Below are positions 301 through 13,124 of a DNA stretch of 14,378 nt, one piece after another (position 1 is the stretch's first letter; the number at the start of each line of letters is the position of its first letter). The stretch comes from a virus, in the UHGV virus genome UHGV-2151295. One strand, 5' to 3'. The translations under genes were made by a program, and so were the position numbers. The notes beneath the pieces were generated by a model. That model was not told where the DNA came from. It did no database searches and saw nothing but the letters and a program-made list of their open reading frames with translations.

Positions 301-442
301 AGCTCAGGTCATCAGAAGGACCCACATTAAAGGCAGAATATTCACTCTGATATTACGCATTGTTTTGCTTTTGTAGATTCGCAATTTACGGTAAAAATCC
401 TTTTGCTATTTCTTCGTACCATAAATGCACAGGAGTATCTTA

Positions 443-763
443 ATGTCCATAAAGGTATTCAGAAGTGACCTTCAGACTGAGAGTGAATCAGACTATCGTA
501 ATTGGCTTGGCGATAATCCAGACGGATATGTTGTCAATGCATTGAAGCGAACCAGAGGTAAAGGTAATAAATCTGACGAACGCTTTACCAGAATCCATAG
601 AGCATCTTGCAAAACGATTAATCCCCTGAAACGCAAGATCGATAAAACAGGATTCACAACTGGAGATTATCAAAAAATATGCTCAACCAACTTCCTCAAT
701 GTTGAAAATGAAGCAAAGAAAATGACAGGTCTGACGAGCATCATCAAATGTCGATGCATCTAA
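443..763 (+). CDS. Hypothetical protein, 106 aa, Lys/Arg-rich, at the bor locus
   Basis: ORF track 425..763; AGGAG at 431..435 sits 7 nt upstream of ATG 443, so 443 is the likelier start. AT-rich. Same orientation as lambda bor but the sequence is not Bor (no lipoprotein signal). No family recognised. Confidence 0.45.
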   Translation: MSIKVFRSDLQTESESDYRNWLGDNPDGYVVNALKRTRGKGNKSDERFTRIHRASCKTINPLKRKIDKTGFTTGDYQKICSTNFLNVENEAKKMTGLTSIIKCRCI

Positions 764-1143: not shown

Positions 1144-1422
1144 TCATCTTACACACTGCGTTCGAATGTATTGCTGCAAGCCTCGGATCATTTTATCACT
1201 GGTTTCAATCCGCTTTCTAAGGGTGAAATAATCCCGTTGAGCGGTGTCAGTAAGTCTGGGGCTGGCGCCATCATCCACGCCGGAGGCGGCGGTGATTTTA
1301 TGCATGTCGGGACAGACTGCATTGAAGCGCAGCCGCTTACGCCCAGCAGAAACATCAGCACGTAGACTTTCGATAACCTGCTCATTGCTGCCCCCACAAA
1401 CAGACTTCACGCTCAATCTCAC
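1144..1422 (-). CDS. rz: Spanin inner-membrane subunit Rz-like, apparently N-terminally short (92 aa, GTG start)
   Basis: C-terminal 70 aa ([15 protein letters not shown]...[18 protein letters not shown]...) align to lambda Rz. The frame has an in-frame TGA at 1431..1429, so the ORF cannot extend to encode the N-terminal TM anchor of a 153-aa Rz. Confidence 0.65.
1188..1385 (-). CDS. rz1: Spanin outer-membrane lipoprotein Rz1 (embedded in Rz, +1 frame)
   Basis: [19 protein letters not shown] lipobox followed by the proline-rich [13 protein letters not shown]...TPLNGIISP motif characteristic of lambda Rz1. ATG at 1385..1383 overlaps the endolysin stop. Confidence 0.7.
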
Positions 1423-1696
1423 GGCGAGTCATCAGCCCTTTCCATTGCTTACCGCCAGCGTATGTCCAGCGACGTAGCTGGTCACATGCGCCTTTGATAT
1501 CGCCCTGGTTTATTTTGCGAAGAAGCGTCGATGTTCTGAAATTGCCAGCACCCACGTTGTAGACGAACGAGTAAAGAGCGCCGCGCGTTGTTTCCGGTAT
1601 ATCGACTTTGATGTACGGGTTAATTTGTCTGGCGACCGTGGCAAGGTCTTTATTCAGGAGGGCTTTGCATTCTGCTTCGGTATACGTTTTAGATGG
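1382..1696 (-). pseudogene. Endolysin remnant: C-terminal about 104 codons of a GH24 (T4-lysozyme-like, R21/RrrD-type) lysozyme, with no start codon and no catalytic N-terminus
   Basis: Minus-strand translation [104 protein letters not shown]. It is in the same frame as ren and begins 2 codons after the ren TGA (1699..1697). The N-terminal about 60 aa that carry the catalytic Glu/Asp/Thr triad in this family are absent. Confidence 0.7.
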
Positions 1697-1987
1697 TCAT
1701 CTTTTAACTCCATATACTGCCAATACCCGTTTCATCGCGGCACTCTGGCGACACTCCTTAAAAATCAGGTTCGTGCTCATCTTTCCTTCCCGTTCTTCCC
1801 TGGTAGCAAACCGGTAATACACCGTTCGCCAGACCTTACCTTCGATAACCAGAAGACCTGCCCGTGCCATTTTAGCCGCGGCCTGATTTATGCTGGTTAC
1901 TGTTGCGCCTGTTAGCGCGGCAACGTCCGGCGCACAGAAGCTATTATGCGTCCCCAGGTAATGAATAATTGCCTCTTTGCCCGTCAT
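1697..1987 (-). CDS. ren: Ren protein (Rex-exclusion resistance), 96 aa
   Basis: Translation MTGKEAIIHYLGTHNSFCAPDVAALTGATVTSINQAAAKMARAG... recognised as lambda Ren; lies directly downstream of P as in lambda. Confidence 0.85.
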   Translation of the reverse strand: MTGKEAIIHYLGTHNSFCAPDVAALTGATVTSINQAAAKMARAGLLVIEGKVWRTVYYRFATREEREGKMSTNLIFKECRQSAAMKRVLAVYGVKR

Positions 1988-2685
1988 ACACTTGCTCCTT
2001 TCAGTCCGAACTTAGCTTTGATTTCTGCGATCTTCGCCAGAGCCTGTGCACGATTTAGAGGTCTACCGCCCATGACAGGAAGTTGTTTTACTGGTTCAGG
2101 GATCGCCTCACCACGGTTAATTCTCGCAGTCATATGGACAAGCTCATCTGCGGCCTTACGGCGTAATTCCGCATCAGTAAGCGCATTGGCCCGCATGTTC
2201 TGATACAGGTTGGTAATCAGCCAGTAGTGCGCGTTTGATTTCCACGGATAAGACTCCGCATCCGGATACAGGCCTCGCTTCCGGCAATACTCGTAAACCA
2301 TATCAACCAGCTCGCTGACGTTTGGCAGTCCGGCGGTAACGGATGCTTCTTCCCGGCACCATGCAACAAACTGCCCGGGTGATGGCAGAAATGGTCGATT
2401 CTGCCGACGGGCTACGCGCATTCCTGCGTTAACCTGTTCCATCGTGGTGATCCCGTTTTCCCGGAAAGCCAGCACCCACTGGCGGCGGATTTCGTTCAGT
2501 TCGTTCTGGTCCCGGTTAGCTAGGCTCGCCGGGAAAGTTGCCAGTAACTGGCTGAACACACCATTGATGATCTGCGCTACCTGTTGTACCTGCGGCTTTT
2601 CGTCGTACTGTTCCGGCATGTTGTTGGCGATCCGACGCATCTGCTCACGGTCAAAGTTAACCATCTGTGCGGCGATGTTTTTCAT
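1984..2685 (-). CDS. P: Replication protein P (DnaB helicase loader), 233 aa
   Basis: Translation MKNIAAQMVNFDREQMRRIANNMPEQYDEKPQVQQVAQIINGVF... recognised as near-identical to lambda P; 4-nt overlap with O stop. Confidence 0.95.
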   Translation of the reverse strand: MKNIAAQMVNFDREQMRRIANNMPEQYDEKPQVQQVAQIINGVFSQLLATFPASLANRDQNELNEIRRQWVLAFRENGITTMEQVNAGMRVARRQNRPFLPSPGQFVAWCREEASVTAGLPNVSELVDMVYEYCRKRGLYPDAESYPWKSNAHYWLITNLYQNMRANALTDAELRRKAADELVHMTARINRGEAIPEPVKQLPVMGGRPLNRAQALAKIAEIKAKFGLKGASV

Positions 2686-3581
2686 AAATCCACCCCGTAA
2701 ATCCAGTCAGTGTTTGTCAGGTCGAGTTTTGGTTTGCTGGCTGTCACGCCTGCCTGTTGCTTGTTACGGTTGATTTCGAGCTGGGTCCACTTGTCGCGGA
2801 GTTTGGCCGGACTCAGCACGTTACCGGACCAGAAGTTGTCCTGGCAGGCCCAGCGGAAAAGCACACACATATCGCGGTGGTTACGTCCGTCACGTTCACG
2901 CATCAGGCGGATATCGTTAGCCCACCCAGCAAAATTCGGTTTTCTGGCTGATGGCGCGATGGTCTTCACCATGTCAAACATCCACTCTGCGGCGGTCAGG
3001 TCTTCTGCTGTTCCCCACTTGCTGCCGCTCTGAATTGCAGCATCCGGTTTAACCACAGAAAGATCGTTTTCTGGCTGGTAAGAGGATTCGCCAGAATTCT
3101 CGGACGAATAATCTTTTCTTTTTTCTTTTGTAATAGTGTCTTTTGTGTCCCCCTGTTTTGAGGGATAGCAATCCCCCAATTTGAGGGATGTTTTATCCCT
3201 CGTTTTAGGGGATTTTCCCTCGTTTTGAGGGATACACCATTCTGAGATGTTTTTATTTGGTCCAAACATGCCGCCTTGCTGCTTGATAATATTCATTCTG
3301 ACGAGTTCTAACTTGGCTTCATTGCACCGTTTGACAGGTAACTTTGTAATCTCGCTAAGTTGAGAATCGGTGATTCTGTCCATTGGTTTATTCCACCCAT
3401 AGGTTTTACGCAGAATGGCAAGCAGCACTTTAAACTGTCGCTTGGTCAGATCTGCGCCCGAATAAGCCTCAAGCAGCATATTTGATAGTCTGGCGTAACC
3501 ATCATCGAGATCTGCCACATTACGCTCCTGTCCGGCAAAGTTACCTCTGCCGAAGTTGAGTATTTTTGCTGTATTTGTCAT
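2682..3581 (-). CDS. O: Replication initiator protein O, 299 aa
   Basis: Translation MTNTAKILNFGRGNFAGQERNVADLDDGYARLSNMLLEAYSGADLTKRQFKVLLAIL... recognised as lambda O; contains the ori iterons internally. Confidence 0.95.
   Translation of the reverse strand: MTNTAKILNFGRGNFAGQERNVADLDDGYARLSNMLLEAYSGADLTKRQFKVLLAILRKTYGWNKPMDRITDSQLSEITKLPVKRCNEAKLELVRMNIIKQQGGMFGPNKNISEWCIPQNEGKSPKTRDKTSLKLGDCYPSKQGDTKDTITKEKRKDYSSENSGESSYQPENDLSVVKPDAAIQSGSKWGTAEDLTAAEWMFDMVKTIAPSARKPNFAGWANDIRLMRERDGRNHRDMCVLFRWACQDNFWSGNVLSPAKLRDKWTQLEINRNKQQAGVTASKPKLDLTNTDWIYGVDL
3090..3240. repeat. ori-lambda: four about 18-bp O-binding iterons (about 3155..3236) plus adjacent AT-rich unwinding region (about 3090..3150)
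   Basis: Seen directly: tandem copies of ATCCCTCAAAAC/TCCCTCGTTTTAGGGGA-type inverted-repeat iterons (tccccctgttttgaggga, atcccccaatttgaggga, atccctcgttttagggga, ttccctcgttttgaggga), preceded by an A/T-rich tract inside the O coding sequence. Confidence 0.85.
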
Positions 3582-4235: not shown

Positions 4236-4252
4236 TTAGTACATGCAACTAT

Positions 4253-4316
4253 TATCACCGCTAGAGGTAAAATAGTCAACACGCACGGTGTTAGATATTT
4301 ATCCCTTGCGGTGATA
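4253..4316. promoter_or_regulatory. Right operator oR1 (4253..4269), oR2 (4277..4293), oR3 (4300..4316) with divergent pR (toward cro, -) and pRM (toward cI, +)
   Basis: Three 17-bp partially palindromic TATCACCGC-type operators seen directly: tatcaccgctagaggta, caacacgcacggtgtta, tatcccttgcggtgata. pR -35 TTGACT and -10 GATAAT are visible on the minus strand. Confidence 0.85.
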
Positions 4317-4323
4317 GATTTAA

Positions 4324-5040
<717 letters not shown>

Positions 5041-5071: not shown

Positions 5072-5833
5072 ATGACACAGTTTCAACTTGCATTAATCGC
5101 TAGAGAAGTTGATGGAGAAGTCATCCATCTTCGCACCAAAGACGGATACATCAATGCCACCGCGATGTGCAAGTCTGCGGGGAAGCTACTTGCTGACTAT
5201 ACACGACTAAAAACAACACAAGATTTTTTTGATGAATTATCACGCGATATGGGGATTCCCATATCGGAGTTAATTCAATCATTTAAAGGCGGAAGAGCAG
5301 AGAATCAAGGGACTTGGGTTCATCCAGACATCGCAATTAATTTAGCTCAGTGGCTATCTCCAAAATTTGCAGTGCAAGTATCGAGATGGGTGCGTGAGTG
5401 GATGTCAGGTGAAAGAGCGCCTGCCGAACTCCCTATCCACCTTAAGCGGTATATGACAAACCGAGGCAGAGTTCCTCATACGCACTTTTCTATGCTTAAT
5501 GAACTGACGTTTAACTTGGTTGCGCCACTTGAACAGGCCGGATATACGCTGCCAGAAAAAATGGTCCCTGATATTTCAGAGGGTAGGGTTTTCTCGCAAT
5601 GGCTCCGTGACAACCGGGGGGTTGAGCCGAAGACATTCCCAACATATAACCATGAGTACCCAGATGGCCGGACATTCCCGGTACGTCTATACCCAAACGA
5701 ATATCTTGCAGATTTCAAACAACACTTCAACGAAGTGTGGCTGCCTCAGTACGCTCCTAAATATTTTGCTGAACGAGACCAAAGGGCATTGACGTTGATT
5801 GAGAAAATCATGCTACCTGACCTTGATTCCTAA
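5072..5833 (+). CDS. KilA-N domain protein, 253 aa, occupying the rexA/rexB position downstream of cI; candidate BstA-like abortive-infection/exclusion protein
   Basis: N-terminal about 110 aa carry the KilA-N signature (DGYINATAMCKSAGKLLADYTRLKTTQDF...ENQGTWVHPDIAINLAQWLSPKFAVQVSRWV). C-terminal about 140 aa have no fold I recognise. Same strand as cI, 31 bp downstream, followed by a strong terminator; no rexA or rexB is present. Confidence 0.8.
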   Translation: MTQFQLALIAREVDGEVIHLRTKDGYINATAMCKSAGKLLADYTRLKTTQDFFDELSRDMGIPISELIQSFKGGRAENQGTWVHPDIAINLAQWLSPKFAVQVSRWVREWMSGERAPAELPIHLKRYMTNRGRVPHTHFSMLNELTFNLVAPLEQAGYTLPEKMVPDISEGRVFSQWLRDNRGVEPKTFPTYNHEYPDGRTFPVRLYPNEYLADFKQHFNEVWLPQYAPKYFAERDQRALTLIEKIMLPDLDS

Positions 5834-7723: not shown

Positions 7724-8092
7724 ATGTCAAACATCAAAAAATACATCATTGATTACGACTGGAAAGCATCAATAGAAATTGAAATCGACCATGACGTAAT
7801 GACAGAGGAAAAACTTCACCAGATTAATAATTTCTGGTCAGACTCTGAATACCGACTCAATAAACACGGCTCTGTATTAAATGCTGTATTAATCATGCTG
7901 GCGCAACATGCTCTGCTTATCGCAATTTCAAGCGACTTAAATGCATATGGTGTTGTGTGTGAGTTCGACTGGAATGATGGAAATGGTCAGGAAGGATGGC
8001 CTCCAATGGATGGTAGCGAAGGAATAAGAATTACCGATATCGATACATCAGGAATATTTGATTCAGATGATATGACTATCAAGGCCGCCTGA
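7724..8092 (+). CDS. ea10: Ea10 protein, 122 aa
   Basis: Translation MSNIKKYIIDYDWKASIEIEIDHDVMTEEKLHQINNFWSDSEYRLNKHG... recognised as lambda Ea10. Confidence 0.85.
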   Translation: MSNIKKYIIDYDWKASIEIEIDHDVMTEEKLHQINNFWSDSEYRLNKHGSVLNAVLIMLAQHALLIAISSDLNAYGVVCEFDWNDGNGQEGWPPMDGSEGIRITDIDTSGIFDSDDMTIKAA

Positions 8093-11558: not shown

Positions 11559-11880
11559 GGCCTGTCAGTTTCTCAAGATATCCAGACCTACCGCTACCAA
11601 CTGGATACGAACAGGCCGCCTACAGGCAACACGCAAAGACCCCACTAAACCAAAATCTCCTTACCTCACAACGCGACAAGCCTGCATTGCGGCGCTTCAG
11701 TCTCCGCTGCATACTATCAAGGTGAGCGCGGGTGATGGCATAACAGAGGAAAGAAAATGTCACTCTTCCGCAGAGGTGAAATATGGTACGCCAGTTTCAC
11801 ATTGCCGAACGGTAAAAGATTTAAACAGTCTCTTGGAACAAAGGACAAAAGGCAGGCGACAGAACTCCATGACAAGCTAA
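11530..11880 (+). CDS. xis: Excisionase Xis, P22-type, 116 aa
   Basis: Internal Met of ORF 11500..11880: [50 protein letters not shown]... recognised as near-identical to P22 Xis; 3' end overlaps the int start by about 124 nt. Confidence 0.85.
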
Positions 11881-12920
11881 AGGCTGAAGCATGGCGGGTC
11901 AGCAAACTTGGTGAAATACCTGATATAACGTTCGAGGAAGCGTGTGTCAGGTGGCTTGAAGAGAAAGCACATAAAAAATCACTGGACGATGACAAAAGCC
12001 GGATCGGATTCTGGCTTCAACATTTCGCAGGAATGCAACTAAGAGACATTACTGAATCAAAAATTTATTCAGCAATGCAGAAAATGACGAACCGGCGTCA
12101 TGAGGAAAACTGGAAACTCAGGGCAGAAGCATGCAGAAAAAAAGGGAAACCTGTTCCAGAATACACGCCAAAACCAGCGTCCGTTGCAACGAAGGCTACG
12201 CATCTTTCATTTATAAAGGCTCTGCTAAGAGCCGCAGAGCGTGAATGGAAAATGCTGGATAAGGCACCAATTATTAAAGTGCCTCAACCAAAGAATAAAC
12301 GGATCCGCTGGCTGGAGCCCCATGAAGCACAAAGGCTGATTGATGAATGTCCGGAGCCATTAAAGTCTGTTGTTGAATTTGCACTGGCAACAGGCTTAAG
12401 ACGCTCGAACATCATCAACCTTGAATGGCAACAAATAGATATGCAGCGCCGGGTGGCATGGATAAACCCGGAAGAGAGTAAATCAAACCGCGCAATTGGC
12501 GTTGCGCTGAATGATACTGCATGTCGCGTATTGAAAAAACAAATCGGGAATCATCACCGTTGGGTATTTGTGTACAAGGAAAGCTGTACCAAACCAGACG
12601 GAACGAAAGCGCCAACAGTAAGGAAGATGCGGTATGACGCAAACACAGCCTGGAAAGCGGCGCTGAGACGGGCTGGTATTGATGATTTCAGATTTCACGA
12701 CTTGAGACACACTTGGGCAAGTTGGCTGGTTCAAGCCGGAGTCCCGTTGTCAGTGTTACAGGAAATGGGAGGCTGGGAGTCTATCGAAATGGTTCGTCGA
12801 TATGCTCACCTTGCACCTAATCACCTTACCGAACACGCACGGCAAATAGACTCGATCCTAAACCCATCGGTCCCAAATTTGTCCCAGTCAAAAAATAAGG
12901 AAGGTACTAATGATGTGTAA
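11757..12920 (+). CDS. int: Tyrosine integrase, P22-type (thrW-targeting), 387 aa
   Basis: Translation [53 protein letters not shown]... recognised as P22 Int; conserved R...HxxR...Y catalytic box ([13 protein letters not shown]...MVRRYAHL) present. Stop 4 bp from the tRNA 3' end. Confidence 0.95.
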
Positions 12921-12924
12921 CTTA

Positions 12925-12970
12925 TTGATTTAAATGGTGCCGATAATAGGAGTCGAACCTACGACCTTCG
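12925..12970. other. Prophage attachment site (int-proximal att core, overlapping the 3' half of tRNA-Thr)
   Basis: Inference: the integrase gene ends 4 bp from the tRNA CCA end, and P22-type integrases recombine within the anticodon-to-3' portion of thrW. The exact core boundaries cannot be set without the second att copy, which is outside the window. Confidence 0.45.
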
Positions 12971-13000
12971 CATTACGAATGCGCTGCTCTACCAACTGAG
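12925..13000 (-). tRNA. thrW: tRNA-Thr (anticodon CGU), 76 nt including encoded CCA
   Basis: Minus-strand sequence GCCGATATAGCTCAGTTGGTAGAGCAGCGCATTCGTAATGCGAAGGTCGTAGGTTCGACTCCTATTATCGGCACCA folds as a cloverleaf by eye: 7-bp acceptor stem, GTTCGACTC T-arm, anticodon loop TTCGTAA giving anticodon CGT. Confidence 0.9.
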
Positions 13001-13124
13001 CTATATCGGCCCTGAAAGGACATGTTCACGAACGTGAATCACGGTGGACAAGGTTAAAACTAACCGGGCGATGCGTCAATGGCCTTGTGAATCAAATGGC
13101 TACTTTTGCATCACCCGGTTTTAT

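Follow-up and report, generated by a model that had tools for sequence, protein, structure and literature searches.

The region between ren and the packaging gene of the UHGV virus genome UHGV-2151295 contains a short open reading frame (ORF) with homology to the spanin Rz, and raises the question of whether an Rz without a membrane anchor represents a gene of unusual design or the remnant of a conventional one. Rz is a type II inner-membrane protein that has one transmembrane domain (TMD) at its N-terminus, which serves as its anchor and is followed by two periplasmic coiled coils, while the gene for Rz1, an outer-membrane lipoprotein, lies within Rz in the +1 frame (PMC5295617). In the lambda protein the N-terminal TMD comprises residues 1-24 and the first coiled coil (CC1) residues 27-87, and nonsense mutations in Rz abolish lysis everywhere but at the last residue (PMC5295617). 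Knockout of either Rz or Rz1 results in an absolute lysis defect (PMC6139136). The original prediction for this locus left a choice between decay of the whole lysis cassette and a different spanin architecture. The window referred to throughout is the entire stretch of DNA that was analysed, 14,378 nucleotides in length.

The window represents the early region of a lambda-like prophage with lambda immunity, in which the following features provide the setting of the Rz-like frame:

First 105 bases, minus strand: 5′ start of a packaging gene, the counterpart of which is annotated as "DNA-packaging protein" in left-arm relatives
1697..1987, minus strand: ren, 96 aa, intact in the ORF list and annotated as "protein ren" in two related prophages (L003 and L005)
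1984-2685, minus strand: P
2682-3581, minus strand: O
Minus strand: cII, followed by O, P and ren when reading from right to left
4251..4279, minus strand: pR-like promoter (TTGACT-17-GATAAT), from a promoter scan
4327-5040, plus strand: cI
Plus strand, besides cI: genes for a KilA-N protein, N, cIII, gam, bet, exo, an excisionase-like HTH protein and the integrase
11757-12920, plus strand: integrase, a 387-aa ORF encoding a DLP12-IntD-like tyrosine integrase
12935-13010: tRNA-Thr(CGT), located after the integrase, with the host gene proA next

The integrase abuts tRNA-Thr(CGT) next to proA (11757-13010), which places the prophage at thrW, the tRNA-Thr site beside proA. Related prophages can be observed at the proA/thrW site in several complete E. 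coli genomes. The Rz/Rz1 remnant is located between ren, the final early gene ahead of a large deletion, and the packaging gene. Neither Q nor a late-promoter region is left in the window, and in the promoter scan the upstream coding-strand site that most resembles a promoter is the pR-like one at 4279-4251, so the lysis remnant is without a late promoter of its own.

Additional genes in the window can be compared with their counterparts in related prophages. A 112-aa ORF (425-763, plus strand) lies opposite the lysis-gene strand, between Rz and the packaging gene. Neither Pfam nor PHROG gives a match for this ORF; its last 106 aa are 100% identical to a "hypothetical protein" (WP_000025003.1) found at the same position in relatives. 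A 253-aa KilA-N domain protein is encoded immediately downstream of cI (5072-5833, plus strand), in the same order as in L003 and L005, at the place of rexA/rexB in lambda itself. Between sieB and cIII, a 122-aa gene of unknown function (7724-8092, plus strand; DUF2528, phrog_646) is present in the window, whereas this interval in L003 and L005 harbors an annotated ral gene.

The Rz-like frame and the features that overlap it are as follows:

1144..1422, minus strand: 92-aa ORF, with a GTG start at 1422-1420 and an in-frame TGA at 1431-1429, two codons upstream
1144..1374, minus strand: Rz C-terminal remnant, codons I72-R147 plus stop, delimited by PF03245, PHROG 13 and alignment
1375..1422, minus strand: 5′ extension of the 92-aa ORF, its first 16 residues, not Rz
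1374..1385, minus strand: ancestral Rz start and codons 1-4 (MSRL), with the ATG at 1385-1383, from alignment to intact Rz genes
1382..1691, minus strand: endolysin remnant R′, codons 64-165 plus stop of an RrrD/phage-21-type SAR endolysin

The 92-aa ORF is the sole open frame with Rz homology, and both the sequence and the ORF list agree with the GTG and the upstream TGA given in the original prediction. Residues 17-90 correspond to profile positions 51-125 of 126 in the Pfam Rz family (PF03245; e-value: 7.5e-27), while residues 15-91 correspond to positions 77-153 of 154 in PHROG 13 (e-value: 3.9e-32). The homology to the Rz periplasmic domain thus extends over the C-terminal part of the profiles only. 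The original prediction had likewise aligned only the C-terminal part, which it put at about 70 aa; the true Rz sequence comprises 76 residues (I72-R147 of the intact protein). It had also described the first 20 residues as hydrophilic, which holds as far as the lack of a transmembrane segment is concerned, but missed that the first 16 are not Rz and consist of the out-of-frame 3′ end of the endolysin together with Rz codons 1-4. Similarly, the ORF does open at the GTG as predicted, but this codon is located inside R′ and no Shine-Dalgarno-like motif occurs 5-12 nt before it (upstream 20 nt: GAAAGGGCTGATGACTCGCC). GTG 1422 is a mechanical ORF boundary rather than a gene start, the ancestral Rz start being the ATG at 1385-1383, which had been overlooked. 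The remnant has no in-frame start and ribosome-binding site of its own directly after the endolysin, and the C-terminal 76 codons of Rz are orphaned, with no credible start, export or anchor signal. A further family, PHROG 2934 (63 positions, "unknown function"), matches residues 30-91 of the ORF (e-value: 2.5e-23); it looks like a family made up of short ORFs that phage records place within Rz genes or derive from pieces of them.

As the original prediction had stated, the 92-aa product contains no transmembrane segment. Its Kyte-Doolittle maximum over 19 residues is 0.38, whereas the TMD of the intact homologue (147 aa; MSRLTAIISALVICIIVCLSWAV...) reaches 2.63, and the single N-terminal TMD (type II, N-in/C-out) of an i-spanin is absent. 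The possibility had been raised that a TMD might be encoded in one of the three frames of 1385..1700, or might be restored upstream once a sequencing error had been corrected. All coding-strand frames of this interval are hydrophilic by the same scale, with no stretch above 0.65, which indicates that the TM-coding DNA is physically absent and not hidden by a frameshift, and that a single-base correction would be unable to restore the anchor. The sole hydrophobic stretch in 1385-1700 (Kyte-Doolittle value: 1.89) lies antisense to the endolysin remnant and has no bearing on Rz.

The fate of the missing DNA becomes apparent when the window is aligned with the intact cassettes of E. coli EN-1077 (L001; NZ_CP159209.1) and SF-468 (L002). 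Relative to both, the window has a single clean gap 12 bases after the Rz ATG, with flanks that are identical or nearly so:

1373..1374, minus strand: Rz deletion junction, from three-way DNA alignment and offset arithmetic, with TA microhomology at 1375-1374

The gap is exactly 202 bp, as the sequence TATCGAAAG lies at an offset from the ATG of 212 in the intact genes and 10 in the window, and both EN-1077 and SF-468 contain an exact match to the 230 nt that extend from the junction as far as the stop of Rz. With the 202 bp, Rz codons 5-71 of 147, encoding the TMD and most of CC1, and the native Rz1 ATG were lost, so that the complete series of coiled-coil 1, linker and coiled-coil 2 is no longer encoded; judged by the domain limits of lambda Rz, most of CC1 would be gone. 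Since 202 = 3x67+1, reading from the Rz start is shifted by +1, into the Rz1 frame. The start itself has survived: the ATG at 1385-1383 overlaps the endolysin stop TGA at 1384-1382, and a GGGGG Shine-Dalgarno-like run is found 6-10 nt upstream of it. From the published data on Rz we infer that a fragment without the TMD, most of CC1 and an export signal would be unable to act as an i-spanin.

In the intact relatives, the deleted segment lies between imperfect direct repeats, TAAC(C)GCGA(T/C)TATC. Slippage between these 14-nt repeats was considered as the origin of the gap, but no hybrid repeat copy is found at the junction and a join at the TA microhomology fits better. In EN-1077 a 92-bp insert (positions 2807-2902 of L001) separates the rrrD stop from the Rz start and encodes an unannotated hydrophobic peptide of 31 aa (MSMICFFMAALLAFNGNDAWPWFLAVGVLMS), with ATGA stop/start overlaps at both ends; this insert is missing from both the window and SF-468. 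Derivation from an EN-1077-like ancestor would need a more complex event, and an ancestor in which Rz directly abuts R, as in SF-468, is simpler.

A separate and larger deletion has affected the genes upstream of Rz:

1690..1691, minus strand: large-deletion junction, with a 2-nt TA microhomology, joining the sequence after the ren stop to endolysin codon 63/64

The ren-side match to L003 (strain 2018-10-2CC), which occupies the same proA/thrW site, ends at base 1690, and the match to rrrD begins at 1691. Relatives at the same site or with the same left arm carry the order ninB...Q...holin...rrrD...Rz between ren and the packaging genes. In L003, ren and rrrD are separated by ninB, ninE, ninF, ninG, Q, two tRNAs and a class II holin gene, and in L005 by ninB, a methyltransferase gene, ninE, NinX, rusA, ylcG, quuD, a porin gene and essD. 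None of these genes, nin, Q and holin included, is present in the window, which also lacks the late-promoter region and endolysin residues 1-63. R′ is nearly identical in DNA sequence to the 3′ 62% of rrrD, the gene of the phage 21 R/RrrD type of SAR endolysin, and differs from it in the absence of residues 1-63 and the start codon; the remnant lies in frame behind the ren stop. It aligns to codons 64-165 of the 165-aa RrrD of EN-1077 and covers only positions 33-125 of 125 in the Pfam profile PF00959. Neither the N-terminal SAR domain nor the catalytic Glu/Asp/Thr of a SAR endolysin is retained, as R′ lacks both the hydrophobic SAR-type N-terminal segment and residues E35, D44 and T50 of RrrD, the equivalents of the catalytic triad in phage 21 R. 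The original prediction had noted that the endolysin is truncated and the holin missing, and both are borne out by the profile match and the comparison with intact relatives, and the decay of the lysis cassette that it proposed is visible there as deletions of 202 bp and of several kilobases.

The embedded gene has fared differently from Rz:

1188..1385, minus strand: Rz1 o-spanin ORF, 65 aa, recognized by PF06085, PHROG 3198 and a lipobox rule

From the Rz ATG at 1385, translation would pass through MSRL into the Rz1 frame, giving an N-terminus MSRLSKV... versus MLTRLSKV... in the intact relatives, where the native Rz1 ATG lies within the 202-bp segment deleted here. Residues 19-57 of the 65-aa product match PF06085 (e-value: 6.4e-13), which corresponds to the proline-rich mature domain, and the product also matches PHROG 3198 (e-value: 1.4e-22). 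A PROSITE-style lipobox rule is passed by this product (Cys19) and by Rz1 of the intact relatives, predicting a lipoprotein signal peptide in each, while products from the downstream alternative starts (GTG at V9, ATG at M11) fail it. The DNA encoding mature Rz1 is identical to that of EN-1077 and SF-468. The profile match and the predicted lipobox thus agree with the original prediction that the embedded Rz1 is intact, and it appears to have taken over the translation start of Rz. No cognate i-spanin accompanies it, the window containing no intact Rz. The 65-aa product was also considered as a u-spanin of the phage T1 gp11 type, with which it shares an N-terminal lipoprotein signal (PMC6139136), but it has no C-terminal TMD, its Kyte-Doolittle maximum over 19 residues being confined to the signal peptide, and it is plainly an Rz1 homologue (PF06085).

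The short form of Rz was sought in other phages and genomes. A megablast search with positions 900-2100 against complete E. coli genomes returned thousands of matches to the arrangement "lysozyme RrrD | lysis protein", and every listed match falls into two pieces that together span about 202 or 294 bases more than the query. With a 171-nt query spanning the junction (megablast against 5,426 complete E. coli genomes), the top-ranked matches listed are likewise all split by 202 or 294 extra bases. The same split is seen in the isolated phages listed among the matches, including SfI, 4A7, 1W, 3W, phage 2851 and several Stx phages. Exact junction patterns gave no hits in GTDB representative genomes, JGI metagenome contigs or IMG/VR, and exact-protein look-ups of the 92-aa, 65-aa and 69-aa products found nothing. 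In the collections searched, the short Rz is therefore private to UHGV-2151295 and not a recurrent architecture, and its reality rests on one assembly. In none of the listed relatives, whether phages or E. coli prophages, is the 202-bp segment missing, and all encode a complete Rz of 147 aa with a strong TMD at the N-terminus. This argues against the different spanin architecture offered as an alternative in the original prediction, for which the same short form would have been expected in a functional phage; it is absent among the phage matches listed.

Among the closest known systems is the lambdoid Rz/Rz1 pair (lambda; the RrrD-cassette "lysis protein" of the WP_096310287.1/WP_060710347.1 type; PF03245, PF06085). 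The C-terminal 76 codons of Rz and mature Rz1 are the same DNA in the window as in EN-1077 and SF-468, and the arrangement is also shared, with the pair directly after the endolysin, an ATGA stop/start overlap and Rz1 in the +1 frame. The window differs in that Rz codons 5-71 are gone and the Rz start reads into Rz1, so that no i-spanin is possible. A parallel for the decayed state is provided by the Rac prophage of E. coli K-12 (L004), where rzpR is annotated as a pseudogene and rzoR is intact, directly downstream of the replication genes ydaU/ydaV/ydaW. Both are defective lambdoid prophages in which a large deletion has brought the replication region up against the final part of the lysis cassette, leaving Rz dead and Rz1 open, and the window shows the features of a cryptic-prophage lysis remnant of this type: a disabled Rz and an intact Rz1 joined to early or replication genes, with neither holin nor Q. 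In Rac, however, the Rz start and about seven first codons were removed by the large deletion itself and the TMD-coding DNA is still in frame, whereas in the window the large deletion ends in the endolysin and the separate 202-bp deletion takes the TMD-coding DNA; the sequences are homologous only and do not represent the same allele. The Rac TMD-coding sequence (ISALVICIVVCLSWGV...; positions 5202-5645 of L004) lies in frame upstream of the rzpR pseudogene, has no start codon and overlaps the 3′ end of ydaW in another frame.

Three readings compete with decay of the cassette. Were the 92-aa protein a true alternative spanin, it would be an anchor-less, soluble Rz working together with Rz1, in keeping with a frame that stays open over 92 codons, with C-terminal 76 residues identical to those of a functional-looking Rz, and with the match to the short-ORF family PHROG 2934. 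We give this reading scarcely any credence. The short form amounts to a 202-bp gap relative to every listed relative, with no listed phage or genome possessing it, and the ORF begins with 16 residues of mostly out-of-frame endolysin sequence at a GTG that has no Shine-Dalgarno motif. With neither signal peptide nor TMD the product would remain cytoplasmic. Rz requires its membrane anchor and both coiled coils (PMC5295617), and the holin and endolysin have been destroyed too. An assembly or sequencing artefact, with an intact Rz in the real genome, would account for a junction found nowhere else in the collections searched, and the direct repeats flanking the deleted segment in the intact relatives offer a possible cause. 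These repeats are, however, only about 14 nt long and imperfect, and the clean loss of 202 bp of unique sequence is atypical of read-level or assembler error. The independent multi-kilobase deletion in the same cassette also shows real decay, and even with Rz restored the cassette would still have no holin, Q or active endolysin. An artefact is accordingly quite unlikely.

Alternatively, the deletion may have turned Rz1 into a gene that stands alone and is maintained by selection, a domesticated outer-membrane lipoprotein expressed from the Rz initiation site, with Rz itself dispensable. Several observations point in this direction: the lost Rz1 ATG has been replaced in frame by the Rz ATG and its Shine-Dalgarno sequence; the new N-terminus keeps a basic n-region and passes the lipobox rule, which products of internal starts farther downstream would not pass; the intact relatives carry exactly the same DNA for mature Rz1; and K-12 Rac similarly keeps rzoR intact beside a dead rzpR. 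A deletion would nevertheless end in this frame by chance in one case out of three, a recent deletion may be enough to explain the identical tail, and conservation cannot be demonstrated for a unique allele. The promoter scan found no dedicated promoter, and to our knowledge no function has been demonstrated for an o-spanin without an i-spanin partner. Selection for such a gene is therefore improbable, and we see an equally slim chance that the locus has become, by chance or selection, a stand-alone o-spanin gene with a rebuilt valid lipoprotein signal, possibly retained by the host, with transcription from pR following the loss of Q and the nin terminators. The intact Rz1 with its complete predicted signal peptide leaves room for selection on Rz1; the transfer of the start codon together with a valid lipoprotein signal is most simply a one-in-three coincidence of frame.

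The region is thus very probably the wreck of a standard lambdoid lysis cassette, with holin, SAR endolysin and embedded Rz/Rz1, produced by two illegitimate deletions at short microhomologies. The sequence itself shows the two deletions and that the TMD-coding DNA is gone while the Rz1 frame is intact. The larger deletion, of several kilobases (1691/1690), fused the end of ren to endolysin codon 64. With it went the nin genes, the Q antiterminator, the late promoter and the holin, as well as the endolysin's SAR anchor and catalytic residues. The 202-bp deletion (1374/1373) took Rz codons 5-71 and moved the surviving Rz start into the +1 frame, that of Rz1. An i-spanin could then no longer be made, and the Rz ribosome-binding site and ATG would now give a near-native Rz1 lipoprotein precursor, provided that the region is transcribed by read-through from pR. 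In the absence of holin, endolysin and i-spanin, the prophage would be unable to lyse its host. We infer that the remnant has no function and that any expression would come by way of pR, and the 92-aa feature is best described, from its sequence, as an Rz pseudogene fragment left by ordinary gene decay in a cryptic lambdoid prophage without Q and holin.

The locus opens nothing biologically new and does not address an open question; its interest lies in annotation and in the fate of embedded genes. Neither spanin nor "endopeptidase Rz" is an appropriate name for the 92-aa ORF, the GTG start of which is an artefact of ORF calling, and the real surviving gene is the 65-aa Rz1 read from 1385. In annotation, the prophage is to be treated as lysis-defective and lacking Q, and hence as cryptic. 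For embedded genes under deletion, the locus provides a case in which a +1-shifting loss in the outer gene appears to have given its start codon to the inner gene.
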